This document shows, piece after piece, positions 35,626 to 63,185 of a stretch of 64,000 bases of DNA. The first letter of the stretch is position 1; every line of letters starts with the position of its first letter. Both the position numbers and the translations under genes were made by a program. The notes beneath the pieces were generated by a model. It was not told the DNA's origin, did no database searches, and saw nothing but the letters and a program-made list of their open reading frames with translations. This DNA is from a virus, in IMG/VR virus record IMGVR_UViG_3300025151_000020, positions 29,311 through 93,310 of that record; one strand, written 5' to 3'.

Positions 35626-35644
35626 TGTCCTATACAACATTCAA

Positions 35645-35680
35645 CAATAGTATATGAATGACAACATGACAGGGCTGACA
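35645..35680 (-). promoter_or_regulatory. Promoter of the protease-MCP operon with an upstream triple TGACA array
   Basis: TCATATACTATTG at 35657-35645; TGACA on the + strand at 35659, 35667 and 35676. Confidence 0.55.
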
Positions 35681-42213: not shown

Positions 42214-43698
42214 TTACTGCGGAGGAGGAGGAGGTTGTTCTCCTCCCTGTTGAGCTGCAGCCGCCTGTTGCTCTGCGGCAACTTCCTGTGGATCAGGTTC
42301 TTGATAGTCAAACTCAAGGAACTTATCATCAATTTGATCTCTCAATTGTGCTTTGTATCCTGCTTGCTTCATCTGCATCATGTTACGGATAGCCATCTCA
42401 TCTCTGCGGAATCGCATGATTTCATCTTCTTCCTCGTGTGGGTTGAGTGTAATTGTCCATTCATCCACGCCAAATGCTTCTAGCAATAATGGGAATAGTT
42501 GCCTGTTGTATATTGATTGAGCATATGCCAAAGCCCTGTTTGTAACAACAATCTGCATACCTTCGTTGTTTAACCCACCACCAGATACATCATTCATGAA
42601 TACATTTGATACACCATAGTATGCAGATATGCGTTGTCTAATGTCATCTTTGATAGGTATGTATTGCAGTTCCTCCAAAGTATCCATCATACGAACATAC
42701 TCAAGACCGCCCCTGCCTGATTCAGTTTCAACGCCAATCGTTGGAACATAATTTGGATCACGCTCAAGATGTTCTTGGATATTACGAGCAGTTCTCTCAA
42801 CAGTTTCCATGTTAGATGATTTAATCACCATGACACCACGAGGCATTCTCCTCTTCTGATATGCAGAATAAACATAGTTATCCATAGCAATGAGCGTATT
42901 TACCTGCCTCCACATAGTAGCAACAGGACTACGACCATACAGTTTGGATGGCGACCATTTGCTGATGTGTATGACTTCTCCCTCAGTATATACCTGGCCA
43001 TTCCCAACACCTGCTAAGTTGATGTAATGAATAGGAACAACAGGCATACCAGACACAGGACATACTGCATCGGGGTCGCTTGTTCTGAATGAACGGTCAA
43101 TCAAACTCGTATATTGTGATCCTCCTCTTATCCCCCTCTTGTCAGACAATATCCTCATGAATATGGGGTCTGCCCTGGATACTTCTCTTATTCTGAAGAA
43201 CATAGGTTGCTTAGTAGCGGGGTCAATGAAATACTCCTTTGTCAGAACAAGATATGCATCATCAACAATATTGAGATCCATTTCTATCTCTCTAAGAACT
43301 TCAATGAAGTTTTGTGTCATCCTGTTGCCACCCTTTAGAACCGCATCGGCATACTCGATCTGCGATTTGTCGGCTTTGCGTACCTCTCCTCCGCATTCCT
43401 TGCAAGCATCAACTTCTTGGTGATACTCACTTTCACACTCTCTGCATTTGCATACAAACTTGGATTTCCATTCCCATCCCTTTCTGAATGTTTCAACGCA
43501 TAAATGATTGAGGATGGATCTTAGAACCATGCACTCATATGCCGCAGCGTATAATGCAGGTATGGTAATTCCTTGCAATAAAGGCGGTTCTTGGACACCA
43601 TCGGTAAATAGGGGCATGGATGGAATAGGAGTATTATGCCTCTCCATATCCATGCCAATAGCTGCAAACATTCTTTCCATTTTTTTGCTATCAACCAA
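42214..43698 (-). CDS. Portal protein with a Zn-finger insertion
   Basis: EVIHISKWSPSKLYGRSP, MPRGVMVI and RISAYYGVS are HK97-type portal motifs; CRECE...CKECG insert. Confidence 0.9.
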   Translation of the reverse strand: MVDSKKMERMFAAIGMDMERHNTPIPSMPLFTDGVQEPPLLQGITIPALYAAAYECMVLRSILNHLCVETFRKGWEWKSKFVCKCRECESEYHQEVDACKECGGEVRKADKSQIEYADAVLKGGNRMTQNFIEVLREIEMDLNIVDDAYLVLTKEYFIDPATKQPMFFRIREVSRADPIFMRILSDKRGIRGGSQYTSLIDRSFRTSDPDAVCPVSGMPVVPIHYINLAGVGNGQVYTEGEVIHISKWSPSKLYGRSPVATMWRQVNTLIAMDNYVYSAYQKRRMPRGVMVIKSSNMETVERTARNIQEHLERDPNYVPTIGVETESGRGGLEYVRMMDTLEELQYIPIKDDIRQRISAYYGVSNVFMNDVSGGGLNNEGMQIVVTNRALAYAQSIYNRQLFPLLLEAFGVDEWTITLNPHEEEDEIMRFRRDEMAIRNMMQMKQAGYKAQLRDQIDDKFLEFDYQEPDPQEVAAEQQAAAAQQGGEQPPPPPQ

Positions 43699-45067
43699 GT
43701 GTCATCACCTCCTCTTTCATCTTGTCGAAGTCATCCACACTTATTTTGTGTTTCCTTAGCAATTTTGACCTTTCGGACATATCTAACGATTCATATGCCA
43801 TTACCATGAGTGTAGGTTTATCGCCTCTCATAGCCTTCAACATAGTCAATGCCGAGGGGAATGTATCTTTTGATTTACCGTTGAAATGAGGTTCTGCTAA
43901 CTCAAGTGCTTTCATTACAGTATCTTCGCCTTGCATAACCAATCCGATACCTCTTGCTTCCACACCAGGTAAGCCCATCTTCTGTAAGGCACTTGCATAC
44001 CAGGGTGCAGTTGGTGCTTTGAAACTAATTTCCAATCTTGGGTATAATCTTGAGTCAAACTTGAATCTGCCACCGTTTTCAATCAAACCTGCCAAGAATC
44101 TGTCTGCGTCTTTGAGAACTATATCTCCCCTTCTAATGTCGTAAAACAATCCCCTTCCTTGAGATTTGCTCAATTGACCTATTGCAATTATATCAAACAA
44201 GAAACCATGAGATTTGATTAAAGAAGATATTTCAGCAGGGCTTGCTTGTACTCCATATGTCTTCAATGTCTGAGCGTTCAATGCCCCTCTATCCAATAAG
44301 ACCTGTCTGCAATTCTTCAAAATTGCTCTTTCACGGTGCGACATTCGCTCAGACTTGTCAATGGTCATCCTCCAAATCCTTTCTGCATCCTTTCTGCCAT
44401 CTTCAGTAGGATCACTAACCCATGTCTTCACAAATCTTCTAAATGGCAAATCCAAACGATTCTTGTTGTTATTCAAAGAGTCAAAATCAAGATCCGTCAG
44501 AGGTAAAGACTCATACAAATTAGGATTGACACCCGTAAATTGAGCAAGAATTGATTGCTTTTCTAACTTAAGCAATGGTTGTATTGCATCAAGAACCTTG
44601 TTTTCTCTAGCCTTGACCAATATCTCTGTTACCTCTCTTCCTGTCATTCCAAAGTTTTCTGGAAACCAATTCTTCATTTTAGCAAGAGGCACAGGAGGAG
44701 GTGCTTCCGAGTCAAGTTCAGTTCCAGGTTGGTCTGTGGGAGGAGTGCTATTGTCATTCTTCATTCCCGTAATCTCAGTACCCTCTCCTTCTTGAGTGGA
44801 GGGTTGGTCTTTTACCGCTTGTTCTTGTTCTGCATTTTTCTTCTCTGCTTCTGCTAATTCTGTTTCGGCCTGTGCTACTTCTTTCTGTTTGGCTTGTAGT
44901 TTATTCTTGATAGCATCAACACCCATTGATGCCGCAGCTCCGATTGCCTTTTTACCCGCAGGAGATGAAGCAATTGCTCCGGCTGCACGAAAAACGGCAG
45001 GTGCAATCTTCTCAACAGAATCAGTCAAATCATTTACCCCATGTACGGGTTCGAGGTATTTACGCAT
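43691..45067 (-). CDS. Multidomain protein with a C-terminal LAGLIDADG-like domain
   Basis: RFLAGLIENGGRF...PRLEISFK; low-complexity coiled N-terminus. Confidence 0.5.
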   Translation of the reverse strand: MRKYLEPVHGVNDLTDSVEKIAPAVFRAAGAIASSPAGKKAIGAAASMGVDAIKNKLQAKQKEVAQAETELAEAEKKNAEQEQAVKDQPSTQEGEGTEITGMKNDNSTPPTDQPGTELDSEAPPPVPLAKMKNWFPENFGMTGREVTEILVKARENKVLDAIQPLLKLEKQSILAQFTGVNPNLYESLPLTDLDFDSLNNNKNRLDLPFRRFVKTWVSDPTEDGRKDAERIWRMTIDKSERMSHRERAILKNCRQVLLDRGALNAQTLKTYGVQASPAEISSLIKSHGFLFDIIAIGQLSKSQGRGLFYDIRRGDIVLKDADRFLAGLIENGGRFKFDSRLYPRLEISFKAPTAPWYASALQKMGLPGVEARGIGLVMQGEDTVMKALELAEPHFNGKSKDTFPSALTMLKAMRGDKPTLMVMAYESLDMSERSKLLRKHKISVDDFDKMKEEVMTLG

Positions 45068-46478
45068 CCGCCCACCCCAACCTGTTACGCCACATCTCAC
45101 CGTCTAGGATAATTATGTTTTCCCGATATTCCTTAGTCGCTTGTACCGAAAGTGCAAGGGCAATCACCATGTCGTCATGTGATCCAAGACTTTCCATCCT
45201 ACCATTATCAAGCATGGTGAACATGGATAATTCATTCAACAAGGTATTCATATGCCTCTTTGTTGCACCTTCATCTTTGTAAGGTACGGCTAGATGTTTT
45301 CTTTCAAAGTGCAATTGCAATGTATGAATCAATGCCTCCTTTTTCATACGACTCATATTGAATGGTTTGATAGGCAGATCGCCAATCTCTTGAAGGACTT
45401 GATTGAAAGCCATAGCAAAATTGTTAGTTTCTAATTCAATTATAACGGGGTTGAACCTAGCATTCAATTCTATTATCTTGTCAATCTGTTGATTGAAATC
45501 CATGTTTTTCTCGTGATGAACATGGACTATCCTCTTGTGCCTATTCTCATCCATGCCAATTACCATCATACAAGTGTAATCCGCACTTCTGTTTGCACTT
45601 ATTGCAGGGTCCCAACCAATGTAGTAGTTCAATTCCTCAGTTGGATCAGGATAGTAAGATAATGCAAGAGAATCATCTTTTACTCCTTCAAGCATTTCTT
45701 CTGGGAATAAACTCGCTTCACTTGCTATTGGCTTACATAGGTACTCACGAGTAAATGCAATAGATGTCATTTCACCCCTTCTAGTATTCAATGCCTCAAG
45801 ATTCCACCTCTCCGGCCACAATGGTTCGCCTGTTGCTTCATTGATTGCAGGATATTCTTTCACACAATACCCGTCTAATCCTTTCAATTCAGAATATAGA
45901 TCGGTATATGAGAACGGTGTTCCGACTACACACATTTGAGCCGTGTGGTGGAGAACGGGCAAAAGAGCAGTATAGAACCATGTAGATATGGATTTCAATT
46001 GAGTATCTGCTTCACTTGACAATATGTCATCCAGAACTACTATATCTGGGTGAGCACCACGAACCGCCTTTCCTATGGACATAGCTCGTATTGATGATTT
46101 ATTTGTCATCTTGAATAATTGCTTTGCCCAACCTCTCTTTGGCTTAAGATGTGCAAGTGCAGGAGTTGTCATAATCAATTCATCCATCTTTGCCATATGG
46201 TCTATGGATTGGTGCTGACTGTGGCTAAAGAACAAAACTTCCGTACCAGGATTATATGCCATCTTCCATAGAAGATATACTCTAAAGAACACGGATTTGC
46301 CGTGATCTCTGCTTGCTATGACGCATACTTTGTTGTGTTTCTCTGCATTCTCATACCACTCTTTATGAAAATGTGCTAATTGAAATTGACATATGTCCTC
46401 AAAGAAGAAACGGAAATCTCTCCTTCCCATTTCCCAATCAACTTTGCTCGTTAATTCGAGCATTGCGTCATTAGTCAC
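45060..46478 (-). CDS. terL: Terminase large subunit
   Basis: Walker A ASRDHGKS, Walker B IVVLDD, coupling motif VGTP, RNase H-like IGWDPA...DYT...HDDMVIALAL. Confidence 0.95.
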   Translation of the reverse strand: MTNDAMLELTSKVDWEMGRRDFRFFFEDICQFQLAHFHKEWYENAEKHNKVCVIASRDHGKSVFFRVYLLWKMAYNPGTEVLFFSHSQHQSIDHMAKMDELIMTTPALAHLKPKRGWAKQLFKMTNKSSIRAMSIGKAVRGAHPDIVVLDDILSSEADTQLKSISTWFYTALLPVLHHTAQMCVVGTPFSYTDLYSELKGLDGYCVKEYPAINEATGEPLWPERWNLEALNTRRGEMTSIAFTREYLCKPIASEASLFPEEMLEGVKDDSLALSYYPDPTEELNYYIGWDPAISANRSADYTCMMVIGMDENRHKRIVHVHHEKNMDFNQQIDKIIELNARFNPVIIELETNNFAMAFNQVLQEIGDLPIKPFNMSRMKKEALIHTLQLHFERKHLAVPYKDEGATKRHMNTLLNELSMFTMLDNGRMESLGSHDDMVIALALSVQATKEYRENIIILDGEMWRNRLGWADA

Positions 46479-49378: not shown

Positions 49379-51194
49379 ATAGAGCCACCTTCACCATCTG
49401 CACATTCTCATGAGGAACATTGAACGCCTTTGCGATCTGTCGCCAATCTCCTCTTGTATGGAATATAGATACAACATCTGTTGTTCCCATCTGAACCTTG
49501 CTTGAAAGCAAAGCAACATCAATTGGAGAATCAACAGACAATTTACCTAAGTGAGTTGTGTCGTCTATGGTGGCTTTTGCTAATGCCAACTGAACTTCTT
49601 CTATGTATTCTTCAAAGTCATTTCTATATGTTTCAGAACGCAGTATAATGTCATCAACAGACATCTTTCCTAACAACCCTGCCAACCTTGACAATAAACC
49701 TCGCCCCTGCCCTGAAACATCACTCGATTGAGCCATTGGTATATCGCTATTCCCCTGCGTTATACGGAACATAGGTGGAACATACGATGGTCCGGTAGGT
49801 GGCGGAGTAACGGCATTGGGGCTTGGATTCGGCCTTTCTGGTAGTGGTTGTCTTGGAATACTGCTTGGTGGCTCACGAATAGTGGGATCAGGTTCTTCTC
49901 CCGTTATAGTGGCTTCTTCTTGAGGCACTTCAACTGAAGGACCGCCATACCATGAGGGTGGTCTTCCTCCTGTTTCTTTCATGTGAGCATCGTATAAACC
50001 GTTGAGTTTTCGTTGTCTAGCACTTCTTCCTCTAATTTTACCTGCATATGCATCATCAAATATGCGTTGGACTACTTCTTCATCAAGTTCATGAGCATCA
50101 GCAATTGCTCTGACCATGCTCTTATTCCCTTTGTATGACCCCTTGCCGAGATTCTTAATCCAATTTGCATCTCTAAGTTCTGGATGTATGATGTCTTCTG
50201 AAACTCTATTTTCAACCGCACTCGGTAAAACTTGTGAAGGGTCTTCCTCTTGTTCGGGAGGCATGAGATCCCCACTTCTTATCTCAGCAGCTTGTTGTGC
50301 CTTTCTTCCAATTCTACCATGTGTTGAATCAAAATTATGATGACCATGATGTGTTCCGTGATATACTAACTTGTCATTCATGAAGTTCTGCTTGACATAT
50401 TCATATGCTTGCTCAGGATTCATGCCTTGTGATGTGGCTTGTGCTTGCAAGTCTTTTACTAATCTTCCAAGATTATCCCTCATCGGCCTGTCGTTGATTG
50501 TAATTACATTGCGATGAACATACTGTGCAGGTATGATATATCTATTCCTGCTATCCTTTCTCCCCGTTTTTCGATTATATTGATGGCCAATAAATCCTAA
50601 ATCCTTTGCGGCTTCTTCATACCATCTTGCATATCCCTCTGTGTTGCCATTATGACCACTAATGATATGAGTAACTAATTTTCCATTTTGAGTATGGAAT
50701 GGATTGAAAGAACCGTCTTTATTTTTCTGGGCTTGAACTAAAGCCGCATTCTCCGACTTATGACTTGCGTTGATTGACCATTTAGCAGGGTCTGCACCTG
50801 TTTTGTCAAAAGGTAAAGGAACGGCAGAAATGCCTCTTTGCTGATTTAGAACATTCTGCCTTTCAGCAGCTTGATTCAACATCGGCCTTCCAATCCTCAA
50901 ACCTTCTTGTAACGCTAACTCGTAAGCAGGATCTTCTGGTCCTGCATGGTATGCTTTTGCATAATAGTCTAACAACTGACCTGTTCGTATTGCCATCTCC
51001 ATAGCATCTGCATCATATGGATTGAGTAGCATTTCTTCTATATCTTCTAAATTATGATGAAGGTTCGGGGTAATCAACCCCATAGCCTCAGAGTTGATTT
51101 CACCTTCATGCCCCATAACGGCACTTATGAATTGGTCTATATCTGAAACCACATAGGATTTGGAGATATAGAAATCATCAAAGTTCCATCCCAA
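49371..51194 (-). CDS. Hypothetical protein (putative internal virion protein)
   Basis: 607 aa, Pro-rich linker, N-terminal FDDFYISKS. Confidence 0.55.
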   Translation of the reverse strand: MGWNFDDFYISKSYVVSDIDQFISAVMGHEGEINSEAMGLITPNLHHNLEDIEEMLLNPYDADAMEMAIRTGQLLDYYAKAYHAGPEDPAYELALQEGLRIGRPMLNQAAERQNVLNQQRGISAVPLPFDKTGADPAKWSINASHKSENAALVQAQKNKDGSFNPFHTQNGKLVTHIISGHNGNTEGYARWYEEAAKDLGFIGHQYNRKTGRKDSRNRYIIPAQYVHRNVITINDRPMRDNLGRLVKDLQAQATSQGMNPEQAYEYVKQNFMNDKLVYHGTHHGHHNFDSTHGRIGRKAQQAAEIRSGDLMPPEQEEDPSQVLPSAVENRVSEDIIHPELRDANWIKNLGKGSYKGNKSMVRAIADAHELDEEVVQRIFDDAYAGKIRGRSARQRKLNGLYDAHMKETGGRPPSWYGGPSVEVPQEEATITGEEPDPTIREPPSSIPRQPLPERPNPSPNAVTPPPTGPSYVPPMFRITQGNSDIPMAQSSDVSGQGRGLLSRLAGLLGKMSVDDIILRSETYRNDFEEYIEEVQLALAKATIDDTTHLGKLSVDSPIDVALLSSKVQMGTTDVVSIFHTRGDWRQIAKAFNVPHENVQMVKVALYA

Positions 51195-51200
51195 TGAAAA

Positions 51201-52556
51201 TCACCTACCATGCCCAACAACACCCGCTTCAACCAATACGGATGTATCGCCAAAGCGGTATGCGGCCTGATCTTCAATCCTCCCTGGTCCGTCTTCGTAA
51301 TGCTTTGAACTTGGATCTGATGACCTTTCTGGGCTTGCTTGCCCTCCCCTCTTTGCATTATCTCCTAGTTCAGGAGTGGCTTTTGTTAGTTTATTCAACT
51401 GCCTCAATATAGCCTCAACTTTCTTTTTGAGATGTAATATCTCGGTTCGGGATAATGCCGTTTTCTTTGATATGGAATCATCTGAACGCCTAATGTAATC
51501 TTCTGTTCCTAACGGGTCGCCATATCCTGGTTGAACCTTGATTGCATTTTTAGGGTTAGTTCCAAGTTGTGGAGATGACGGCATTTTTGTTCCTCTGCCC
51601 GAATCAACGGGATTTCCTAGAACAACTCCTCTAGTTCCTGTTTGGCTGATACCTGTTCCGCCTGTTCCATAATGATGAGTAAATTGTCGTGGTTGTGATC
51701 CTCTCGCCCTATACATTCTATTCTGAGCCTTCTTTCTTTCCCATGCTACGGGATCACGAAGCCTCAAAGGAATGGTTCTATCTCTTGTTGAACCAAGATT
51801 TCTCAATGGAAGACTTCTCGCATTGGGTGCGAATGATTGTCTTCGAGAATAAAGGTTGAGTTGCCTCTTAGCCCTACCCGCTTCCCTCTTGCTTTGCGAC
51901 TTCGGTTGCCTTCCGCCTGTGGCTTTGATTCTTCCACCGACTTTCCTGCCTCTTCTTCCTCTCCCTTTTCGTCTTCGTTTGGCTTTGGACTTTCTTCTTT
52001 CTTCGTCACTATCTTCATCCTCCTCGTATTTTCTTCCTTTGTATTTTCTTTTACCTTTGCTAATTGACCATGCATCCTCAAATGATTCGTCACTTGACAA
52101 AGTAATTGCTCTAGTGCCTCCTCGTGAAGGATGGCCGTATGTCACATTTGGCGTTGTGCTTCTAACTGTTCCTCTGTTTGCACCTGCTGACAATGACAAA
52201 CCATTAGCCCCAAGATCCACGCCAAGACCTGTTTCAAGCAATTCGTTCTCCTGCTCCATCATAGGACTCCTCTCCATTGCCTCATCCATTTCTTCGGGTT
52301 TGACGCTAATGTGTTGCAGACCAGGCATGAGTTCTCTCAATGCCTTGTCCTTACGCTTCTGAGGATTGGTTTGATCTCTGCTTTCACCATCTTCTGGTGT
52401 GGTTCTCGTGTGATGTGCAAGCCCCTCTGCATTTTCATTTGGATTGACATCAAGATCACCATAATTGCCCATTTCACGGGGTTTATGCCCGCCCATGAAC
52501 TCGGCTACTCTTGGTTTCCAACCTTGATATGAGTCACGAGGATTGCCCATTGTCAC
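51201..52556 (-). CDS. Arg/Lys-rich protein (protamine-like middle) with an internal tag
   Basis: SFEDAWSISKG directly precedes KAKRRRKGRGRRGRK. Confidence 0.55.
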   Translation of the reverse strand: MTMGNPRDSYQGWKPRVAEFMGGHKPREMGNYGDLDVNPNENAEGLAHHTRTTPEDGESRDQTNPQKRKDKALRELMPGLQHISVKPEEMDEAMERSPMMEQENELLETGLGVDLGANGLSLSAGANRGTVRSTTPNVTYGHPSRGGTRAITLSSDESFEDAWSISKGKRKYKGRKYEEDEDSDEERRKSKAKRRRKGRGRRGRKVGGRIKATGGRQPKSQSKREAGRAKRQLNLYSRRQSFAPNARSLPLRNLGSTRDRTIPLRLRDPVAWERKKAQNRMYRARGSQPRQFTHHYGTGGTGISQTGTRGVVLGNPVDSGRGTKMPSSPQLGTNPKNAIKVQPGYGDPLGTEDYIRRSDDSISKKTALSRTEILHLKKKVEAILRQLNKLTKATPELGDNAKRGGQASPERSSDPSSKHYEDGPGRIEDQAAYRFGDTSVLVEAGVVGHGR

Positions 52557-53047
52557 TTGTGAATCGCCCCCTCATCGTATGGAGGATAGGTAGAACCTCC
52601 ATATTTATTTTGATTATTCACTCTAATGGCGTGAACGGATTTGAAGCCCGCTTGGATTCTTATTGGCAAATTAAGATACCACTTTGCGAGAATCTTTGTT
52701 TGAGCATATGACTTGGATAATGCCATGAATGCTTGCTTGAGATGCCTTATTGTTTTCAAAACTTCAAGATACTGAATATCATCTGTTAGATCAGGACATT
52801 CTTCTTCGGCAGTTAGATAGCTGATGATTGCAAAGCGACACTCCATTATTGCCATATACACAGAAGTCGCTATCTCATCTGCATTATCTATCTCAAAGCC
52901 TTCCATTGACTCTAACCATGCTTTTACTACGAAATCAAGACCATCCAGGCAACGAATCAATTCATCCTCACAGATAGGCCAACCATCTTCATGGAGTATA
53001 TCTTCATACTCCGTGCCTTTCAACATCAAATCCCACAATGATTTCAT
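52553..53047 (-). CDS. Hypothetical helical protein
   Basis: ATGA coupling at 53044-53047; starts MKSLWDLMLKG. Confidence 0.55.
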   Translation of the reverse strand: MKSLWDLMLKGTEYEDILHEDGWPICEDELIRCLDGLDFVVKAWLESMEGFEIDNADEIATSVYMAIMECRFAIISYLTAEEECPDLTDDIQYLEVLKTIRHLKQAFMALSKSYAQTKILAKWYLNLPIRIQAGFKSVHAIRVNNQNKYGGSTYPPYDEGAIHK

Positions 53048-53757
53048 CCTTCCAACACTCCTGCTTCTGCCAAAGCGTTGCGAAGTACACGCCATTCATC
53101 AGGTGATTTTTCTGCAAAATGGGCTTGTATCACGGTAATCACATTCACAGATTGGCTCTTGTCTAAGGATTCCATTGTTTCCGACCATTTGGCAAGATCG
53201 TTCAGCGTTTCCCTAACCTCACGGTGCAACTGAACTGCAAGGCTTATGTCCTTTGGGGAGATAATGTCTGGTGTTTCAATGAATTGTGACTCTAACCTGT
53301 CTATCTGCATACCAAAAATCTGATCCAAACGATTCATGTTTGTCTGAATCCTTTGCAATGCAGCTCTAGTATCGCCAATTACAGTAGGCATCATTTCCAA
53401 TGTTGCTTGCTTCTGTACGAGAGGAGCAGTATGTGTATCCAAGTGATGACTGATAATTGAAGCATCAACTCCTAATTCATATGAAAAATCATCAATGGAT
53501 GCTCTACCATCCATGATTGCAGATTCAATCTCGGCTCTTTCGGGGTGTGTGCATATCGCACAGTCATGATTGCTATTGTTGTAGTATTCATCACCAGAAT
53601 GTCTTTTCATATGTCTATGACTTGTACCACTTGCCCATCCTTGTTCTCTGTCAATTGCCTCTGGTGTAGTAATGCCTGTGCGTATCTGATGTTCAAACTC
53701 ATCACGCTCTGGATGGTTACAGAAGGGGCAATTCTTGCGTGTCTTCCGACCAGGCAT
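53044..53757 (-). CDS. Probable terminase small subunit
   Basis: Two CxxCxHPER Zn-HTH repeats followed by a coiled oligomerisation region; upstream of terL in the same orientation. Confidence 0.6.
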   Translation of the reverse strand: MPGRKTRKNCPFCNHPERDEFEHQIRTGITTPEAIDREQGWASGTSHRHMKRHSGDEYYNNSNHDCAICTHPERAEIESAIMDGRASIDDFSYELGVDASIISHHLDTHTAPLVQKQATLEMMPTVIGDTRAALQRIQTNMNRLDQIFGMQIDRLESQFIETPDIISPKDISLAVQLHREVRETLNDLAKWSETMESLDKSQSVNVITVIQAHFAEKSPDEWRVLRNALAEAGVLEG

Positions 53758-53780: not shown

Positions 53781-54206
53781 TTATTGGGTCTTTTCATGCT
53801 TCTTCATGTGGATGCCACAATATCCATCCTTTGATTCAGACGAGATACGCCTTTTGCACCTTGATCCAGAAGCAACTGTCGCCTTGCATAATTTATGCTC
53901 AGGAGGGTTTCGATAACACTCAACACATAGACCTGTTCCATACTTTGACTTCTTCTTCAAAGGCTTGCCACAGTCCTGGCATTGTTTGACTTTTCTTCGC
54001 TTGATGAGTGCCTTCGCATCCTCAATATTTACCTCGCCATCTTGGTTGATGTCCATGATGGAATCTGCCGCATCATGCAATGCCGTAAAATCCTGATCTT
54101 GTATTGGATTGTTATACGCAACATACATCATGGGTTGGGAGGTAAATCCTCCGCCCCTACTAATTCTAGGGGCACTACCGAAAGGAAGCGTACTGTCTTC
54201 CTGCAA
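53781..54206 (-). CDS. Double Zn-finger protein with an EF-hand/dockerin-like loop
   Basis: DINQDGEVNIED; CQDC...CVEC; CKA...RCKR...YCGIH. True start may be the Met at ~54131. Confidence 0.55.
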   Translation of the reverse strand: MQEDSTLPFGSAPRISRGGGFTSQPMMYVAYNNPIQDQDFTALHDAADSIMDINQDGEVNIEDAKALIKRRKVKQCQDCGKPLKKKSKYGTGLCVECYRNPPEHKLCKATVASGSRCKRRISSESKDGYCGIHMKKHEKTQ

Positions 54207-54444
54207 TTAAGAAAGTTGCAAAGAGAAGAAGAAGTGCCATCATAGATTCCATAGGTTGCATCTCTGGTCCCTTGAATGCTAGAATTACTATGTCCATCAA
54301 CATGAATGATATGATAAATATCATAGTTGCACTTTCAACGAGTATTTTCTTTGGGCTAAACATAGCCAAAGTTGTAGTCATTGGATTTATGCCAAGATTG
54401 TTTTCATAATCGTCATACTGTCCTGTTCTTTCCATAACAATCAC
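54175..54444 (-). CDS. Small membrane protein (2 TM)
   Basis: Two hydrophobic stretches: ATMIFIISFMLMDIVILAF and MMALLLLFATFLIAG. Confidence 0.65.
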   Translation of the reverse strand: MIVMERTGQYDDYENNLGINPMTTTLAMFSPKKILVESATMIFIISFMLMDIVILAFKGPEMQPMESMMALLLLFATFLIAGRQYASFR

Positions 54445-55061
54445 ACCAACGCTGCTGCTCCCATTGCACCCATACTTGGCATTCCTTGTTGTTGCATATG
54501 AGTTCCAACTAACCCTCCAAGCAAACTACCAAAGAATCCAGGTTGATTTTGACCAGATAATAGAGGGTTGTGAGCTGCAAGTAACATCTGTATCTGTTGC
54601 TGATTCATTTGAGTCTGTTGCATACAAGCAGATTGGAGGCTCTGCAAAGTCAATCTTAGATTCTCAGATGACATTGAAACTAACCCTGTGGGCAAAGAAT
54701 TAGCGTCAATTGTCAATTTTCCATCTGCATCTGGGGTAAATGTTACAGTTGTAAAGAAGTCTTTGAGTGAAAGTGTAATCACTTCTCCGATTAAATCTAA
54801 CAACACTCCCATTTGATTAGATTGTATGAAAGCCGCAATTGGGTCTTGATACTGTAACAATCTCGCAGTTGCTTGTATTGGATCATTAGCCATTTGTTGC
54901 ATTAGCGGATTCTGTTGCATCATCTGCATCTGCATCGGGTCCATTCCACCTCCCATCATCCCATTTTGCATTCCATATCCCATACCCGACATTCCTGCAC
55001 CCATGCTTGGTGCTCCGAATTGTTGAGTAGGTGCTTCACTACTTCTTGAAAACCAGCCCAT
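54441..55061 (-). CDS. Met/Gln/Gly-rich protein with an amphipathic C-terminus
   Basis: MGWF start, MQMMQQNPLMQQMANDP, GFFGSLLGGLVG; GGAGG RBS. Confidence 0.6.
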   Translation of the reverse strand: MGWFSRSSEAPTQQFGAPSMGAGMSGMGYGMQNGMMGGGMDPMQMQMMQQNPLMQQMANDPIQATARLLQYQDPIAAFIQSNQMGVLLDLIGEVITLSLKDFFTTVTFTPDADGKLTIDANSLPTGLVSMSSENLRLTLQSLQSACMQQTQMNQQQIQMLLAAHNPLLSGQNQPGFFGSLLGGLVGTHMQQQGMPSMGAMGAAALV

Positions 55062-55074
55062 TTTTATTCCTCCA

Positions 55075-56034
55075 TTAACTTCCCGCTACCTGTTGTTGTG
55101 TGGGAATCGTATTAGCAGTTGCTTGTGGTGTTTGCGGTGCTCCACCACGACTATCGGGTATAAACTGCGGCACTCCTATCATGCCATTTTGTTTCATTGC
55201 ATCTTGTATTTGCAATGCCCGCAAATCAAAAGTTACGGTTACTAAGTCTGCAACGCCACTTATTGGATTTGGGTGTTGAACCATTGTGATCCCCTTTTGA
55301 TGTTGGACATCTTGTTGAATCATTTTGAAAAACGGTTCGTACTTTAGTAGAGATTCTGTTGTGGATCGATTCTTCTGTTTCGTTGAGCCTCCGGTCAATG
55401 CAGACATACCAGGCACTTTGAGAAACTTAGTTCCCAAACTCGCAGGTCTTGATAACCCATCACTTTCAAGCATTTCCTCCTGTGTCAATTTCTTTAGAGT
55501 GTGATATATGTGTAAGTGAGCAGGGCAAAGCGTACTGTTCAATTGATCGCCAATATCTCCATATGTCCTTGCATGGGGTTTGCGAGGTTGTCCTGTATCT
55601 TCATCAAACCAATATATGTCTGCTAATGATAATCTGGTATCTTCATCAATAATATGGGCATAGGCATTATCAGAACCTTCTATGAATCTGCGGATATCTG
55701 CACCACAACAAGCACATTCATGAGCTGCATTGTAACGATATATGCTAAATATTCCAAACCAATATCTTGGGGGTTTCAATGCCTTACGAAGCATTTTGAT
55801 ATTCTTTTTTCTAGCCTTCCTCGGATTCTTTGCATTGGTATGCAATTTGATTTCAACAGTAGGAACAAAACTCTCATCATCACCTGGAAGGTTTTGTCCT
55901 GTGCTTGCCATCTCAGCCCTTTGTTGTGACTTCAACATAGGATATGCAATGCCCGTATTTTTTGATAATTGCATCAATTCCTCATCGCTAAGTCCGGCTA
56001 AACGAATGCCTTGATTCCACAGTCCGAGATTCAT
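55075..56034 (-). CDS. Hypothetical Zn-binding protein
   Basis: ECACCG...LCPAH; preceded by the 23-bp repeat. Confidence 0.6.
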   Translation of the reverse strand: MNLGLWNQGIRLAGLSDEELMQLSKNTGIAYPMLKSQQRAEMASTGQNLPGDDESFVPTVEIKLHTNAKNPRKARKKNIKMLRKALKPPRYWFGIFSIYRYNAAHECACCGADIRRFIEGSDNAYAHIIDEDTRLSLADIYWFDEDTGQPRKPHARTYGDIGDQLNSTLCPAHLHIYHTLKKLTQEEMLESDGLSRPASLGTKFLKVPGMSALTGGSTKQKNRSTTESLLKYEPFFKMIQQDVQHQKGITMVQHPNPISGVADLVTVTFDLRALQIQDAMKQNGMIGVPQFIPDSRGGAPQTPQATANTIPTQQQVAGS

Positions 56035-56043
56035 CTTCGTGTA

Positions 56044-56066
56044 AATGTCAGTCGTGTCAGGTTAAT
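56044..56066 (-). promoter_or_regulatory. 23-bp promoter/operator, copy 2
   Basis: ATTAACCTGACACGACTGACATT, identical to 57675-57697; ends 9 nt before ATG 56034. Confidence 0.8.
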
Positions 56067-56082
56067 TAGGCTAATCCATTTA

Positions 56083-56814
56083 TCATAGAGATTCAATCAT
56101 TTTTATCATGACCTTTTCTATATTCAATCCATGTTGTGCAGATATGGCTTCAACTTCGGCATGAATGCCCGCTTTTCTCAATCTTCTAAGTTCATTTCTA
56201 AAGGGATAAACAATCGGATGTTCTCTCTGCAAACCGTGATCCCACAAATATTGAGATTGAGGACTCCACCAAAGATCCATTTTGTTAATTAGAAAACAAA
56301 CCATATCTGGTCTATACCCCTTTCTTGCATTTTTCCTAGCCTTCTTGCTAAGTGTTTTGCATCTGTCATGGCCTGTGATGTTGTCAATCAGATATTTCAA
56401 AGAAGCAACTGATTCTCTCGTATGTTGGGGATATTTGATTATCCTATCATCAATCATGAAGAATATTATGTGCGGTTTTCGAATGAATATATCCTCTGCC
56501 CATAAACTCCAAAATTGAGATTGGCCACCAATATCCACACTAGAAACGGGATGTCTTTCTTTCTTCCATTTGATTTGATGGCGATGGGCAGTTGGTAACT
56601 CATATTTTCCATTCATTTGCCTGTGTGATGTTCTAAACTCTAATGGAATCGGTTCTATGTCACCAGGAACTGTAAGATATTGGTCAAGAGTCGTCTTTCC
56701 GGTCATCGTTGGACCGTAAATGCCTATTCTATGTGGCTTCAAAGTACGATACACTTTTTTGATCGCATTGAAAGATGCCAATATGACGTGACCTGCTAAT
56801 AACGTGGAACTCAC
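56083..56814 (-). CDS. Small Ras-superfamily GTPase, Arf/Sar1-like
   Basis: G1 GPTMTGKT, G2 Thr (FRT), G3 DIGGQ followed by xxxxxLW, G4 NKMD, G5 SAQ; N-terminal amphipathic helix. Confidence 0.85.
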   Translation of the reverse strand: MSSTLLAGHVILASFNAIKKVYRTLKPHRIGIYGPTMTGKTTLDQYLTVPGDIEPIPLEFRTSHRQMNGKYELPTAHRHQIKWKKERHPVSSVDIGGQSQFWSLWAEDIFIRKPHIIFFMIDDRIIKYPQHTRESVASLKYLIDNITGHDRCKTLSKKARKNARKGYRPDMVCFLINKMDLWWSPQSQYLWDHGLQREHPIVYPFRNELRRLRKAGIHAEVEAISAQHGLNIEKVMIKMIESL

Positions 56815-56821
56815 GGGAAGA

Positions 56822-57049
56822 TCACTCCCTGTTCGTTATCCACTCCCAAACTTCCACAGGTCGCATTTCCCCAAAGTTGTCTAACAGAAATAAAGTGAAA
56901 AATGTTAGAGCAATTCCTCCGAACAACGCCACTACGGTTCGCACCCATCCAGCCAGCCGTTCCATCCTTCGTTCATAGGCATTTTCAGCAAGGATCTGTG
57001 ACATTGCTTCTGTTTGCCTTTCCTGTTTGGTGCTAAACGGCCACACCAA
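56822..57049 (-). CDS. Small single-pass membrane protein
   Basis: TM segment VVALFGGIALTFFTLFLL. Confidence 0.65.
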   Translation of the reverse strand: MVWPFSTKQERQTEAMSQILAENAYERRMERLAGWVRTVVALFGGIALTFFTLFLLDNFGEMRPVEVWEWITNRE

Positions 57050-57060
57050 CTCTTCCCCCC

Positions 57061-57534
57061 TTATTGCTTGTCATCTTCGTTACTACCATCATTGGGGATT
57101 CCAAATAATTGTTGTCCTGTGGATTGAGTGAATTGATTGCCCCATTCAGCTCGCATTTGTTCCTTCTGAAACCTCCTGGACTGTAATTGCATCTGTTGCC
57201 TAAACCACTTGTCATATCGTGCTTCTTGCGAAAACTCTGCTCGCATGGCTAGACTATCTCTAATCCCACCAACTTGGAACAGAACCATTGCCAAGCAAAG
57301 GAATCCGAAAGCAATTAGCCCATACTGTAATCCCATCTCTCCAGGAGATGCGTTGGGGAGATACCAATCAAGATGCGATATACAAACCGCAGTTCCTGTT
57401 AGTAGTGATTGCCATAGCAACATGGCTATCAGATTTACATCAATTCTTTGGCTATCGTTTATTCCAAAGGGAGGAGCTGCTATTCCTCTCATTGGTGTTC
57501 CTGGCTTAGGGGGTTGCATTACCATCTTAATCAT
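57061..57534 (-). CDS. Membrane protein (2 TM plus coiled tail)
   Basis: LIAMLLWQSLLTGTAVCI and YGLIAFGFLCLAMVLF; Gln-rich helical C-terminus. Confidence 0.65.
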   Translation of the reverse strand: MIKMVMQPPKPGTPMRGIAAPPFGINDSQRIDVNLIAMLLWQSLLTGTAVCISHLDWYLPNASPGEMGLQYGLIAFGFLCLAMVLFQVGGIRDSLAMRAEFSQEARYDKWFRQQMQLQSRRFQKEQMRAEWGNQFTQSTGQQLFGIPNDGSNEDDKQ

Positions 57535-57668
57535 CCTTCATTTTCTAATGCACGAAATCCTTTTTCGATCAACATATTACAAAATGCTGACTTGGATGCA
57601 AGTCCTCTTTTTGCTTCTAACAAATGATAGAGGTCTTCCCTCAGAATTACAGATACGTGCTTTCCCAT
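57531..57668 (-). CDS. Ribbon-helix-helix (CopG/Arc-like) transcription regulator, 45 aa
   Basis: Not in the ORF track. Hand translation MGKHVSVILREDLYHLLEAKRGLASKSAFCNMLIEKGFRALENEG: alternating beta strand, helix A, SKS turn, helix B. ATGA-coupled to the next gene. Confidence 0.8.
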   Translation of the reverse strand: MGKHVSVILREDLYHLLEAKRGLASKSAFCNMLIEKGFRALENEG

Positions 57669-57674
57669 TGCAAG

Positions 57675-57697
57675 AATGTCAGTCGTGTCAGGTTAAT
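57675..57697 (-). promoter_or_regulatory. 23-bp promoter/operator, copy 1
   Basis: ATTAACCTGACACGACTGACATT, ending 6 nt before the RHH start codon; contains TGACA-N4-TGACA. Confidence 0.8.
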
Positions 57698-57714: not shown

Positions 57715-58977
57715 TCACGGAAGAAACGCAGATAAATCGGGTTCTCCTTCTAACGGACTCATTAGACTTAGACGCTTCTCTTCCAATTGTTGTTGCACCC
57801 ACCATTGTTGTGCCATTGCCAAGTTCTTTTGTTCTTCATCTAAACTGTGATGAAAAGTCTTTGATCCATGACCTGTGTAATCTATCGCCTTTACATTAGG
57901 GTCCCAACAAGCATCGCAATTGTGCGTTTCACACCTGTTTTGTTCTCCTGTCTTACCTGCGGCAGGGCAAGCCCATACTGCTCCGTGATCATACCTATGA
58001 CTCGCATTGACTGAACTGCCCGTGATATTAGGATGTGATGCCATGAGTCTTTTCATTTGTTCCGAATGATGCACAGGAGCGTGTTGTTTGTGCTGAGAAA
58101 CCCTTATTGTGAGATTGGGAGGAATCTGCCCCCCTGCCTGTATAAACTCTCTCAGATGTTCATGCTCTCTTGTTGATAGCCAAAACTTCTTGTCAGGGTG
58201 TGCTCTTGCAACATCTGAATGGATTGCGAAGTGATGAGGGCTTTGCATATCTCCCGAAGCATTCAATCTAATTCTATCATGTCCTGCTTCCCCTATCTGC
58301 CAAGAAAGAGCTGCGGCATACATCTGGGGATTTGCTAAACCTAGAAGATTCCTAGTTTGATGTGCTTGAACGCTATCTGATTTCAGATGCATGACATTAT
58401 CAACATAGCAACCATCGCAAACCGTATCCTGATCGCTCTCTCTAAGTTTTGACCCCATGTTGCACCCCCAAGTAGGCAAATCTTCACTTGGACCCCACAT
58501 TTTATCCATATTACTCATACCATGCGTATCTTTGGTAGTGTGTCCTTTGATGTCATTGTCTTTGATAAACTTGCCAATAGCACGAGATGAATGTGCTCTG
58601 CTTGCAGGTATTGAACCTGTTTGATTTCTCCATATGTGTTCCATCATGTGAGTGCCGTCATCTGCTCTAAGATTGACACCTCCTTGTATTGGATAGTTGG
58701 ACAAACCCTCTCTGACTTGCTCTAATGCCTTAACATGAACCGGATCTATCTCTTTTCTCCTGATCCTTGTCAATGACCCTTCGCCCTGGAAGTTTTCCTC
58801 GCCTCTTGCAGCCGCCCAAAATTGACTACCTGTATTCAATTGGTTTCGTATCTCTTCAATACTTTTGGTGATTACATCCTGTATTGGCTCTTGATGTAGC
58901 GGATCTCTGCACACTTGGCAGTACAGATGAGAGTTATCATCATGGAGGAGTGCATTGTGAGGTATAGCTACCGCCAT
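57715..58977 (-). CDS. GP88-family (radical-SAM-like, Cys-rich) phage protein with an N-terminal extension
   Basis: LPTWGC...VCDGCY, RIRLNASGD, FWLSTRE, PPNLTIRVS, CPA...C...CDACWD. Confidence 0.65.
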   Translation of the reverse strand: MAVAIPHNALLHDDNSHLYCQVCRDPLHQEPIQDVITKSIEEIRNQLNTGSQFWAAARGEENFQGEGSLTRIRRKEIDPVHVKALEQVREGLSNYPIQGGVNLRADDGTHMMEHIWRNQTGSIPASRAHSSRAIGKFIKDNDIKGHTTKDTHGMSNMDKMWGPSEDLPTWGCNMGSKLRESDQDTVCDGCYVDNVMHLKSDSVQAHQTRNLLGLANPQMYAAALSWQIGEAGHDRIRLNASGDMQSPHHFAIHSDVARAHPDKKFWLSTREHEHLREFIQAGGQIPPNLTIRVSQHKQHAPVHHSEQMKRLMASHPNITGSSVNASHRYDHGAVWACPAAGKTGEQNRCETHNCDACWDPNVKAIDYTGHGSKTFHHSLDEEQKNLAMAQQWWVQQQLEEKRLSLMSPLEGEPDLSAFLP

Positions 58978-59137: not shown

Positions 59138-59545
59138 TTATCCCGCAGTTATTATTCCATTGCAAGTGCTACAAACCGTGTATGAGTATGGGCCTTCTTC
59201 ATCCTCATCCTCTATGAGCAAAGCCCCATCCTTCCAATCTTGTATCTGTTGAGGACTAGCGGGTACTTGATTTCCAAACCTGTCATGTGCCATCCCATTG
59301 TATTCAGGGCAACTGCACCAATCATCCTCTGAATCCTTCTGTGCTATCAAATCCTCAGAAGTCGTTTGGCCTGTTCCATTACAGGAAGGACAAGTGACGA
59401 AATTGACGTTGATTGGGTTTCCTTGAGGATCATTCTCAGTAACTTGAACCTGGCCTCTGCCTTCGCATTGTGGGCATGAGTGCATACCGCCCTCTGTGTA
59501 TCTGACTTCTTTGACTATGTTCCAAGCCTTGTCAAAAGAAGTCAT
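59138..59545 (-). CDS. DnaJ-type Zn-finger protein with an N-terminal tag
   Basis: CPQCEGRG...CPSCNGTG; MTSFDKAWNIVK. Confidence 0.65.
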   Translation of the reverse strand: MTSFDKAWNIVKEVRYTEGGMHSCPQCEGRGQVQVTENDPQGNPINVNFVTCPSCNGTGQTTSEDLIAQKDSEDDWCSCPEYNGMAHDRFGNQVPASPQQIQDWKDGALLIEDEDEEGPYSYTVCSTCNGIITAG

Positions 59546-59550
59546 CCTAA

Positions 59551-60072
59551 TCACTCAGTTATATGGACTTCTTCTCCACAAGCAAAACATTTGACTCCTG
59601 CTTCATTACTAAATCTAAATGGGCTGAAAGATGTCTGATTGCTTGAGTATTCTTGATTTTCTTCTCCGCAAAACGGACACATCCAAGTGTATTCTCCATC
59701 GGGATGGTCTTCAGGCACTTCACGGTGTCTTACCTTAACGGGTCTTTCTTGTTTAACAATGGGGTCTGGGTGACATCTGCAACTCGCCCAGGGCGATCTT
59801 TCTCCTTCTGTTCTAACCTTGACTTGCTCACCACAATCGGGGCATTTGGGTAATGGCACATCGCCATGATCAACGGCTCTATCTAACTGAGAGAAAAAAT
59901 CGTCTTTTTTTGCGAAATCCCATGCCTTTTCAAAAGGATCAGGATCTCCACGATTTGCTTTTAATCTATCACCACAACATTTGCCCGCAGCTTCCCCCGA
60001 ACCACAAGCACAAGGAGAACAAGTACAACTTTTAGGGCTACATTCAGGGCAATCTCTAGCCATCTCAATCAC
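59551..60072 (-). CDS. Multi-Zn-finger protein with a SEC-C-like motif
   Basis: PCACGSGEAAGKCCG, CPDCG, CPFCG...CFACG; PFEKAWDFAK. Confidence 0.6.
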   Translation of the reverse strand: MIEMARDCPECSPKSCTCSPCACGSGEAAGKCCGDRLKANRGDPDPFEKAWDFAKKDDFFSQLDRAVDHGDVPLPKCPDCGEQVKVRTEGERSPWASCRCHPDPIVKQERPVKVRHREVPEDHPDGEYTWMCPFCGEENQEYSSNQTSFSPFRFSNEAGVKCFACGEEVHITE

Positions 60073-62276: not shown

Positions 62277-63185
62277 TCAAACAGAAATCTGCAATGCTTC
62301 TTTTGCTTTCCTAATGTGACTATTGACAAAAGATATGGCTGAATCAAGGCGTTCTCTATCCACATTAGATCTCAGTCCTCTCTTTTCTGCCCAATCAACC
62401 AAATCCTCAGTCGCTAAATTGCCATGTGAGCCTTCAACAAACGGACACCCCCCTAAACCAGACAAAGATGAGTCAAACTCTCTAACGCCCATGTCGTAAG
62501 CTGCATCCAATTTACTATGCATAGAGCATATGTCATCTCCATGATGTAAATGCAAGGCAATCTTAGAGGATATACCGATATTTCTAGTCAATTGAATAAG
62601 TGACTTAATTGATTCTGGTGTTGCTCTACCTGCCGTGTCAGATAGGACAATGGTATTTCCAAACCCCTCTGCCCACTCTAATGACTGAATTAAGTCGTTT
62701 TGGCTGATGTTTCCACTCATAGGACAACCAAACACGCAACTCAGATACACTCGAACATCTGATTTTGAAATATTTGACAAGGAATCCTTGTACTTCGCAT
62801 AGACACCATATGTTGTGTCATTATGGTTGTTGTTGTTGAATCCCTCACTTGGCGACATGAATATGTTGATTTTCTCTGCCCCTATGCTTCTCGCTCTTTT
62901 CAATCCCTTCTTATTCGGCACAAGAACACCAAACTCGCAATTCTTATGCTTCTTGGCCGAATGAGTGAATATTTCAGATGAATCAGCCATATTTGGAACT
63001 AATTTGGGATGTACAAACGAGCCGACCTCTATTCGCCTCAACCCTGCATCAACCAAATGGTCAATCAATGCTAACTTCACCGATGTTGAGATTTGACGAT
63101 CCAGGTTCTGCAAACCATCTCTCGGACTCACCTCATAGATTTCAAGATCCGTCAGATTAGCATTCCTATCTTTTTGAATACCCAT
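62277..63185 (-). CDS. hmgL: Hydroxymethylglutaryl-CoA lyase
   Basis: EVSPRDGLQN, IEVGSFVHPKLVPNMAD, LSDTAG, LHLH, GLGGCPF...GNLATEDLV. Confidence 0.9.
   Translation of the reverse strand: MGIQKDRNANLTDLEIYEVSPRDGLQNLDRQISTSVKLALIDHLVDAGLRRIEVGSFVHPKLVPNMADSSEIFTHSAKKHKNCEFGVLVPNKKGLKRARSIGAEKINIFMSPSEGFNNNNHNDTTYGVYAKYKDSLSNISKSDVRVYLSCVFGCPMSGNISQNDLIQSLEWAEGFGNTIVLSDTAGRATPESIKSLIQLTRNIGISSKIALHLHHGDDICSMHSKLDAAYDMGVREFDSSLSGLGGCPFVEGSHGNLATEDLVDWAEKRGLRSNVDRERLDSAISFVNSHIRKAKEALQISV

Follow-up and report, generated by a model that had tools for sequence, protein, structure and literature searches.

Why a tailed virus, apparently of marine archaea, should encode a small GTPase reminiscent of those that act in membrane traffic, and should keep its gene in a tight run with genes for small membrane proteins, is the question raised by the locus described here. 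It lies in a stretch of 64,000 nucleotides (the window) corresponding to bases 29311-93310 of the IMG/VR virus record IMGVR_UViG_3300025151_000020, a record of 93,310 bp with a CheckV completeness of 88%. Eight co-directional genes occupy positions 53781-57697 of the window on the minus strand, and we propose, with a probability of roughly 0.5, that they constitute a virus-specific late-gene cassette organised around a GTP switch at the cytoplasmic face of the host membrane, with virion release as the likeliest purpose. An earlier reading of the letters alone (the original prediction) had described a tightly coupled run of eight genes forming a self-regulated operon, and all eight open reading frames (ORFs) are indeed present with short gaps or overlaps. 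They are listed here in the direction of transcription, together with two copies of an upstream element; TM denotes a predicted transmembrane segment.

57675-57697, minus: upstream element, copy 1, 23 nt, ending 6 nt before the start of the ribbon-helix-helix (RHH) gene
57531-57668, minus: probable RHH protein, 45 residues, first gene of unit 1
57061-57534, minus: 2-TM protein, 157 residues, its tail at the C-terminus charged and helical; overlaps the stop of the RHH gene by 4 nt
56822-57049, minus: 1-TM protein, 75 residues
56083-56814, minus: small GTPase, 243 residues
56044-56066, minus: upstream element, copy 2, 23 nt, ending 9 nt before the start of the Cys/His gene
55075-56034, minus: Cys/His (probable zinc) protein, 319 residues, head gene of unit 2
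54441-55061, minus: Met/Gln/Gly-rich (MQ) protein, 206 residues
54175-54444, minus: 2-TM protein of holin-like size, 89 residues, its start overlapping the MQ stop by 4 nt
53781-54206, minus: zinc-finger protein, 141 residues, accessory

From the RHH gene to the zinc-finger gene, successive genes are joined by a 4-nt overlap, separated by gaps of 11, 7, 48 and 13 nt, and joined again by overlaps of 4 and 32 nt. Kyte-Doolittle windows give two, one and two TM segments in the 157-, 75- and 89-residue proteins respectively, and none in the other proteins of the cassette.

A small GTPase in a conserved viral cassette

Its pattern of conservation identifies the 243-residue protein as a genuine small GTPase with an intact nucleotide-binding core that is under selection. 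The motifs are GPTMTGKT (residues 34-41), DIGGQ (94-98), a tryptophan eleven residues past D94 (W105), IIFFMID (116-122) and INKMDL (176-181), and the strings quoted in the original prediction (DIGGQ, the LW region, IIFFMID and INKMDL) are all found in the protein. G34, G39, K40, D94, G97, N177 and K178 are invariant in an alignment of 30 sequences reaching down to 22% identity, in which D180 and W105 are at least 90% conserved; among 33 close relatives 37 positions are invariant, and 105 close homologues occur on contigs of up to 108 kb. Conservation so far beyond chance argues for a nucleotide-binding protein under selection, and we regard it as almost certain that the GTPase and its cassette are real. 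All five G motifs had been reported to be present; this holds for G1, G3 and G4, which are invariant across the family, whereas G2 and G5 are positional assignments. The candidate for G2 is T62, which is invariant in the window's own lineage and lies in a region modelled with a predicted local distance difference test score (pLDDT) below 50, and alignments with the Asgard protein ArfR1 and the archaeal protein ArvA (both considered below) put their G2 threonine 1-4 residues off. The candidate for G5, assigned by its position, is a conserved SAQ at residues 225-227.

A helix is predicted ahead of the P-loop, at residues 3-24, and it aligns with the N-terminal helix of ArfR1. The N-terminus starts with a hydrophobic stretch of 12-16 residues, which is followed by a strongly amphipathic, basic one: the hydrophobic moment of the 11-mer at residues 16-26 is 0.85, a value matched by 0 of 200 shuffles, and the N-termini of lineage 1 (the lineage of the window) have 11-mer moments of 0.57-1.06, matched by 0-10 of 200 shuffles. 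The segment is hydrophobic in all lineages, although outside lineage 1 it is hydrophobic rather than amphipathic. The amphipathic helix of the original prediction is thus present as an amphipathic stretch in lineage 1, but with a hydrophobic 12-16-mer in front of it this is not a simple amphipathic helix. The AlphaFold2 (AF2) model of the protein has a mean pLDDT of 70, with a good C-terminal half and the fold of a small G domain. Relative to Arf proteins there is a longer interswitch region (by about 13-17 residues compared with that of ArfR1, and modelled at pLDDT below 50), a basic, Lys/Arg-rich insert before G4, and a second insert between G4 and G5.

The cassette is not peculiar to this genome. 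A core of five genes, encoding a TM protein, a small TM protein, the GTPase, a CxxC..CxxH zinc protein and an MG[WL]F Gln/Gly-rich protein, was found in four virus lineages represented by 55, 145, 375 and 4 IMG/VR loci respectively. In lineage 1 the order RHH/2-TM/1-TM/GTPase/Zn/MQ/2-TM is retained in 53-55 of the 55 loci, as are a helix-turn-helix (HTH)/zinc gene after the cassette and two further genes, and taken alone this order could reflect overall collinearity. Lineage 2, with a GTPase of about 37% identity, has the zinc protein in 80/80 loci and keeps the MQ protein and both the 89- and the 157-residue TM proteins. The GTPase of lineage 3 is 223 residues long and about 34% identical, and is accompanied by a 2-TM protein of 150-165 residues, a small TM protein of about 74 residues, a 226-residue protein and a 237-residue MGLF protein; the set directly follows the major capsid gene and three small genes, and next to come is the gene for a phrog_17057 protein, which also adjoins the head genes of the window. 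In lineage 4 the same five genes lie downstream of a thermosome-like gene, and the zinc protein is matched at E 4e-24. The position of the 2-TM protein is filled by a protein of the same topology in lineages 2-4, and a small TM protein of 72-79 residues occupies the 1-TM position in lineages 3 and 4. Because the order of the five genes is kept while their surroundings change, the core appears to be a functional unit, and this is a stronger argument than collinearity. The synteny check therefore supports conservation of the neighbourhood in related viruses, with one correction: the 141-residue zinc-finger gene, counted as a member in the original prediction, is present in 18 of the 55 lineage 1 loci (18-21 of 55-56 related loci, depending on the set), and we rejected it as a core member and treat it as accessory. 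We also note that the thermosome-like gene of lineage 4 (L249:2250-3785), which resembles group II chaperonins, encodes 511 residues and lies two genes upstream of the first TM-protein gene.

Kinship with Arf proteins and ArvA

The affinity of the GTPase was judged by the rank order of profile and fold matches. On its own, the window protein has MMR_HSR1 as its top Pfam match (E 0.006), followed by Arf (0.12) and Roc (0.21), and it scores 12.3 bits against Pfam Arf (PF00025), where the cut-off is 22.3. Across the family Arf is the commonest of the weak Pfam matches (20 of 33 members, best E 1.4e-4), ahead of Roc, Ras, MMR_HSR1 and Gtr1_RagA, and the PF00025 cut-off is exceeded by just two very distant relatives (25.5 and 26.8 bits). 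The same model also matches 12 of 14 ordinary control genomes, so weak Arf matches mean little by themselves and membership of Arf proper is not established. Ranking is more informative. Searched against PDB sequences, the family profile places GerdArfR1 first (8OUN, E 5.4e-10, 42 bits), with an alignment that starts in the N-terminal helix; this entry is an Asgard Arf-related protein (bioRxiv 10.1101/2024.02.28.582541). Arl8A/B and Arl10 follow (about 3e-7 to 1e-6), then Rab33B (3.8e-5), and Arf1, Arl5, Arl1, Sar1 and KRas stand lower (about 2e-4 to 1e-3, with KRas at 5e-4). The best structure matches are Arl1, Arl8b, Arl3, RagA-like proteins, SRbeta and Sar1, and no Ras, Rab or Rho protein appears in the top 50 by Z. 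A protein-language search finds viral clusters nearest and then bacterial clusters in which 17-67% of members have an Arf domain, and some family members carry the automatic JGI label 'GTPase SAR1 family protein'.

Further sequence searches return little beyond the family. A profile search of a set of 5.8 billion proteins recovered the query family itself only, the 66 phmmer matches among 1.84 billion representatives were all family members or fragments of them, tblastn against GenBank phage records gave no match, NCBIfam offered the generic small_GTP model only, and locus scans with the most distant relatives (P0163, P0132 and P0112) yielded no loci. By sequence and predicted fold, then, the GTPase is very divergent and Arf/ArvA-like. 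Assignment to the Arf/Arl/Sar1 branch stands insofar as the nearest profile and fold matches are Arf-family proteins, and falls short for Arf proper. Like ArfR1 (8OUN/8OUM) and Arl8, Arl1, Arl3, Arf1 and Sar1, the viral protein has a switch II DxGGQ with a tryptophan at +11, aligning with DLGGQ...W of GerdArfR1 and DIGGQ...W of Arl8A, together with a helix before the P-loop, an NKxD motif and no C-terminal cysteine for lipidation. It is unlike them in being about 60 residues longer, with the longer interswitch and the two inserts, in the absence of a tryptophan before the G3 aspartate, in having SAQ as G5 and a variable catalytic glutamine, and in that no ArfGAP or Sec7-type partner is present in the cassette. 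SRbeta and Rag/Gtr1 give a weaker sequence signal than ArfR1 and Arl8, and the viral system lacks a roadblock/longin partner domain, a C-terminal Rag dimerisation domain and an SRalpha-like partner.

The original prediction took such GTPases to be characteristic of eukaryotes and Asgard archaea, a premise that is now outdated. In Haloferax volcanii the formation of extracellular vesicles depends on ArvA (OapA), a small GTPase of Arf-like type that has an amphipathic helix at its N-terminus. Its gene stands together with arvB (OapB, DUF2073) and arvC (a zinc ribbon, DUF2072), and ArvA occurs widely among Euryarchaeota and DPANN (PMC10927574). We collected 23 ArvA genes through their OapB neighbours in genomes of the host phylum. 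ArvA is the best match of the viral family profile in 5/5 Arv-bearing genomes that were searched whole (E 1.6e-5 to 1.2e-3, with runners-up at 0.003-0.03), and in hhalign the viral family aligns with ArvA along 165 columns that span the N-terminal helix through to the C-terminus, at a probability of 98.1% (E 1.1e-13). On a common hidden Markov model (HMM) scale ArvA scores a modest 18-32 bits, Arl8 33 bits and GerdArfR1 42 bits, and because of these modest scores the relation of the viral GTPase to ArvA is, as far as sequence goes, one of distant homology and not orthology. Viral GTPase, ArvA and Arf proteins are, on the same comparisons, mutually distant relatives.

Between the viral cassette and ArvABC there are likenesses of organisation as well. 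Both have a small GTPase of about 210-240 residues with an N-terminal helix of the membrane-binding kind and a near-identical RIGIYGP..GKTTL P-loop context, and both are tight gene clusters in which the GTPase gene is succeeded by that of a predicted zinc-binding protein. The differences are considerable. No cassette protein has a Pfam match to the ArvB or ArvC families at E up to 1, and the neighbours were rejected as ArvB or ArvC orthologues since hhalign against alignments of the two gives probabilities of 0.1-21%; their place is taken in the virus by integral membrane proteins, two or three in number, along with a Gln/Gly-rich protein. Its switch II is Arf-type (DxGGQ...W) where ArvA has DTPG, its N-terminus is far more hydrophobic than that of ArvA, and it is encoded by a virus; Arv genes were not found in the genomes searched of the host order.

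Partner proteins, regulation and genome context

The partners of the GTPase are conserved, with few recognisable relatives. The 157-residue 2-TM protein (TM 35-53 and 73-91) is present in 54 of 55 lineage 1 loci and has very many invariant residues in and around its TM segments, and the 75-residue 1-TM protein (55/55) has an invariant N-terminal cytoplasmic segment, WPF..ERQ..ILAEN.Y.R..ER. The 319-residue Cys/His protein, likewise in 55/55 loci of lineage 1, probably binds zinc: it has a conserved basic helix and candidate ligands at C107, C110, C170 and H173 (plus H178). Basic helix, CxxC and CxxH are collinear with those of the 226-residue protein of lineage 3, where hhalign gives E 6e-4 but a probability of 28%; no Pfam, PHROG, PDB or Atlas relative was found above chance, and the AF2 model is poor (pLDDT 51). 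The MQ protein (55/55) begins with MGWF, has a conserved domain at its centre and carries a C-terminal glycine-zipper-like GFFG..L.G...G, and is homologous to the 237-residue MGLF protein of lineage 3 (hhalign 91.9%, E 7e-7, 104 columns). The 89-residue 2-TM protein (TM 39-57 and 64-82) is kept in 54/55 loci of lineage 1 and 66/80 of lineage 2; none was seen in lineage 3, and it is known from lineages 1 and 2 only. Both 2-TM proteins have a size and topology compatible with holins, although neither matches a holin family in Pfam or PHROG, and no lytic enzyme was seen within 51-63 kb of the window. The accessory 141-residue protein combines an EF-hand/dockerin-like calcium loop with C-terminal Cys-rich fingers of DUF5763-like type (E 1.6e-5, below cut-off).

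The original prediction of a single self-regulated operon needs to be divided. A 23-nt repeat is exact in its two copies (26 nt at 25/26). The full 93-kb record, window included, contains no others, none is expected by shuffling, and one copy heads each of two units, RHH/2-TM/1-TM/GTPase and Zn/MQ/2-TM/(Zn finger). In each copy an AT-rich TTAA box precedes two CTGACA half-sites with a spacing of 9 nt. This box is about 28-30 nt ahead of the start codon, a distance compatible with an archaeal TATA box that would serve a near-leaderless transcript. The exact duplication was considered as a family-wide feature and discarded, the relatives sharing only a degenerate tandem TGWYA-N4-TGRCA. Among 45 distinct related loci this pattern precedes the zinc gene in 36, the RHH gene in 27 and both in 23, against a background of 0.007 per 55 nt, an enrichment that is somewhat inflated in that the pattern was derived from the sequences in which it was counted. 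The 45-residue protein is probably an RHH DNA-binding protein: it is present in 53 of 55 loci with a conserved strand-helix-G-x-SKS-helix pattern (HVSV strand, RG turn, SKS, second helix), two of 22 members match Pfam RHH_5 weakly (E 0.054), and its family has no match among PDB sequences. Co-regulation of the two units would fit the RHH-like gene and the duplicated element, and autoregulation by the 45-residue protein is a reasonable proposal, but two units that share an element replace the one operon. TGWYA-N4-TGRCA also occurs at 35667-35680 (plus) and 49680-49693 (minus); about 2.3 occurrences are expected by chance in the window, and these are probably meaningless.

Nearly all the long ORFs of the window are on the minus strand, and cassette and structural genes share one orientation, with the cassette heading a block that leads to the following genes, all downstream of it in the direction of transcription.

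45060-46478: large terminase (Terminase_6C)
42214-43698: portal
34258-35640: prohead protease
33063-34220: HK97-type major capsid protein

Upstream of the cassette are a GP88-family gene, small zinc-finger genes and an HMGL-like gene. We infer that the element is a tailed virus of the magrovirus type that infects marine group II archaea (Poseidoniales), because the single-cell genome 'uncultured Candidatus Poseidoniales archaeon AG-422-I20' includes a 106-kb contig on which the cassette recurs, its GTPase being 77% identical, and because relatives of the GTPase are carried on viral contigs of 90-110 kb. In the surface ocean magroviruses rank with the most abundant viruses, and the archaea that they infect cannot be cultured. 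A bacterial host was considered on account of an 8,227-bp contig labelled 'MAG: Parvibaculum sp.' (L058, NZQM01000063.1; alphaproteobacterial) that encodes a magrovirus GTPase of 49% identity, and was rejected, the short contig being most likely a binning error. The Poseidoniales genomes that we searched are a sample of incomplete genomes, and all negatives hold for those searched. No GTPase homologue was found in 200 other Poseidoniales genomes, which gave only P-loop-length matches in unrelated long proteins, and no homologue of the zinc protein in 150. A recent host origin of the GTPase was rejected on the first of these results, and the cassette appears to be virus-specific. OapB (ArvB, PF09846) was found in 0 of 201 Poseidoniales genomes, compared with 95 of 201 across the phylum.

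Several observations concern the surroundings of the cassette. Directly after it, at 53044-53757 (minus), is the gene for a 237-residue protein with two CxxC...H..H zinc motifs and an ArsR-type HTH (PF01022, E 6.4e-5), kept in 54/55 loci of lineage 1 and 79/80 of lineage 2; the protein may serve as a late regulator or as a DNA binder akin to a small terminase. A 451-residue protein at 51201-52556 (minus) has a long, extremely Lys/Arg-rich central stretch and no family match, and recurs in 53/55 loci. Just upstream of the RHH gene, the 420-residue GP88 protein at 57715-58977 (minus; Pfam E 2.3e-17, with a weak match to DUF5131) is found at low identity in 32/55 loci, and beyond it at 59138-60072 (minus) are two small zinc proteins, one with a DnaJ-type CXXCXGXG repeat (E 9.6e-7) and one with an NZF-like finger (Vps36-NZF-N, E 9.3e-5), both below cut-off and each present in 1/55 related loci. 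The HMGL-like gene at 62277-63185 (minus) is of the pyruvate carboxyltransferase type (Pfam E 5.1e-32) and is a possible auxiliary metabolic gene, and a single ORF of 3,212 residues lies downstream of the head genes at 19443-29081 (minus). Pfam Arf (PF00025) matched 0 of 121 Poseidoniales genomes at E 0.001, against 12 of 14 controls; this is odd, as ordinary translation and ribosome GTPases would be expected to match, and may reflect the search prefilter.

Release, assembly or vesicles

A working model for the cassette can be drawn from these features. The RHH protein would bind the tandem CTGACA half-sites and thereby time both units, and GTP loading would expose the N-terminal helix of the GTPase, as in Arf, Sar1 and ArvA, allowing it to enter the membrane. 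The two TM proteins encoded upstream may recruit the GTPase or hold it there, with the zinc protein and the Gln/Gly-rich protein as putative regulator and effector or coat, and the assembled machine would bend, vesiculate or permeabilise the membrane late in infection. Virion release would be its likeliest purpose, in a host that is not known to have murein and with no ArvABC found in the genomes searched. The parts of this model do not carry equal weight. We think it rather probable that the GTPase acts at the membrane. A role in lysis, egress or vesiculation is suggested by analogy and by gene content, and release as the specific purpose of the cassette is a tentative assignment on the unlikely side. 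Somewhat more doubtful is the fullest version, in which a major group of tailed archaeal viruses would use the cassette as its machinery for egress, one combining GTP-timed bending and rupture or budding with membrane receptors and zinc and Gln/Gly-rich effectors.

The closest functional parallels are the holin lysis cassettes of phages such as lambda (S-R-Rz) and P2 (Y-K-lysABC). These have in common with the viral cassette small 1-2-TM proteins with charged C-terminal tails in a tight late-region cluster, and the layouts are alike in that the viral cassette heads the packaging genes in the window or sits between the head genes and later structural genes in lineage 3. They differ in that no member of the viral cassette matches a holin, endolysin or spanin family, and we know of no GTPase in any phage lysis cassette. 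In a host not known to have murein, moreover, the logic of holin and endolysin is not directly transferable.

Some of our results weigh against a membrane switch that serves release. The window protein falls under every Pfam GTPase gathering score; the catalytic glutamine after DxxG varies within the family (D, H, A, E or F in some members); and AF2 models residues 1-96, which include both switches, at pLDDT below 50, so an Arf-type switch is not modelled with confidence. None of the partners has any likeness to ArvB, ArvC, a known GTPase-activating protein, a guanine nucleotide exchange factor, a coat protein or a holin in Pfam, PHROG, PDB, Atlas or hhalign comparisons. As to regulation, this genome alone has the exact 23-nt duplication, its relatives retaining only the degenerate motif, and the count of that motif is subject to the inflation noted above. 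Finally, a cassette set amid structural genes fits a role in assembly equally well.

Assembly is indeed one of the explanations to be considered, with the cassette as a membrane-anchored platform, as a chaperone or checkpoint that would use GTP to time head, tail or packaging steps, or as a source of virion-borne TM proteins for ejection or piloting. Lineage 3 places the cassette between the capsid gene with its three small genes and phrog_17057, a neighbour of the head genes in the window, and in the window itself the cassette is co-oriented with the terminase/portal/protease/capsid block that it heads. However, the lysis cassette of lambda is at the head of the late genes and that of P2 between head and tail genes, and since phage lysis cassettes are thus also found in late or structural regions, position does not discriminate between release and assembly. 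What counts against morphogenesis is that the cassette shifts as a block with respect to the structural genes and has no fixed neighbour among them, that no structural PHROG or Pfam family matches any of its members, and that the assembly of tailed viruses has no known need for a membrane-bound Arf-like GTPase; we consider this explanation improbable, though worth keeping in view. We give about the same low weight to a module for vesicles or host manipulation, in which the virus would supply an ArvA-like vesiculation activity for decoys, receptor removal, spread of DNA or RNA, a replication compartment or superinfection exclusion, and not for lysis. ArvA, the closest cellular relative in euryarchaeal genomes, has vesicle formation as its demonstrated function, a zinc-binding protein follows the GTPase as arvC does, and the 201 Poseidoniales genomes yielded no ArvB. 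Yet ArvA (18-32 bits) is no closer to the viral GTPase than Arl8 (33) and ranks below Asgard ArfR1 (42), no neighbour is homologous to ArvB or ArvC, and the cassette is in the late region with the structural genes and not among early or host-takeover genes.

It is also conceivable, but quite unlikely, that the GTPase has no membrane role and is a regulatory or nucleic-acid switch in translation, replication or transcription timing, its linkage to the TM-protein genes reflecting genome collinearity. The top single-sequence Pfam match (MMR_HSR1, E 0.006) is to a ribosome-associated family, the insert before G4 is rich in lysine and arginine, and RHH, HTH and zinc-finger genes of DNA-binding type surround the cassette. 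The Pfam match loses force in that ArvA too is annotated as MMR_HSR1 and is nevertheless a membrane vesiculation factor, and the best fold and profile matches are membrane-traffic GTPases and not Era, Der or Obg. Collinearity, for its part, does not account well for a five-gene core that is intact in four lineages despite changed surroundings, and the hydrophobic N-terminus is conserved in all of them. A membrane-bound GTP switch is the reading that we favour, with lysis or egress as a hypothesis for its role.

In the literature searched, no paper describes the cassette, and none links magroviruses or any archaeal virus with a small GTPase of their own. New here are the quantitative comparison with ArvA, the finding of no Arv genes in the searched Poseidoniales, and the changed position of the cassette in lineages 3 and 4, together with the duplicated upstream element and its family-wide degenerate counterpart and the conserved CxxC..CxxH candidate ligands. 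A 2024 review called the players in the egress of tailed archaeal viruses 'completely uncharacterized' (PMC10791045), and the cassette is a concrete, clonable and testable candidate for the exit of such viruses. Should it serve assembly or regulation instead, it would still represent a new and universally conserved magrovirus function. If it does act on membranes, it would be the first GTPase system of the membrane-traffic type to be owned by a prokaryotic virus, extending the story of ArvA and the Asgard Arf proteins, in which membrane-deforming small GTPases exist outside eukaryotes, to a virus that would supply the function to a host order where no Arv genes were found. The egress reading, if true, would add a principle of lysis unrelated both to holin-endolysin systems and to virus-associated pyramids.

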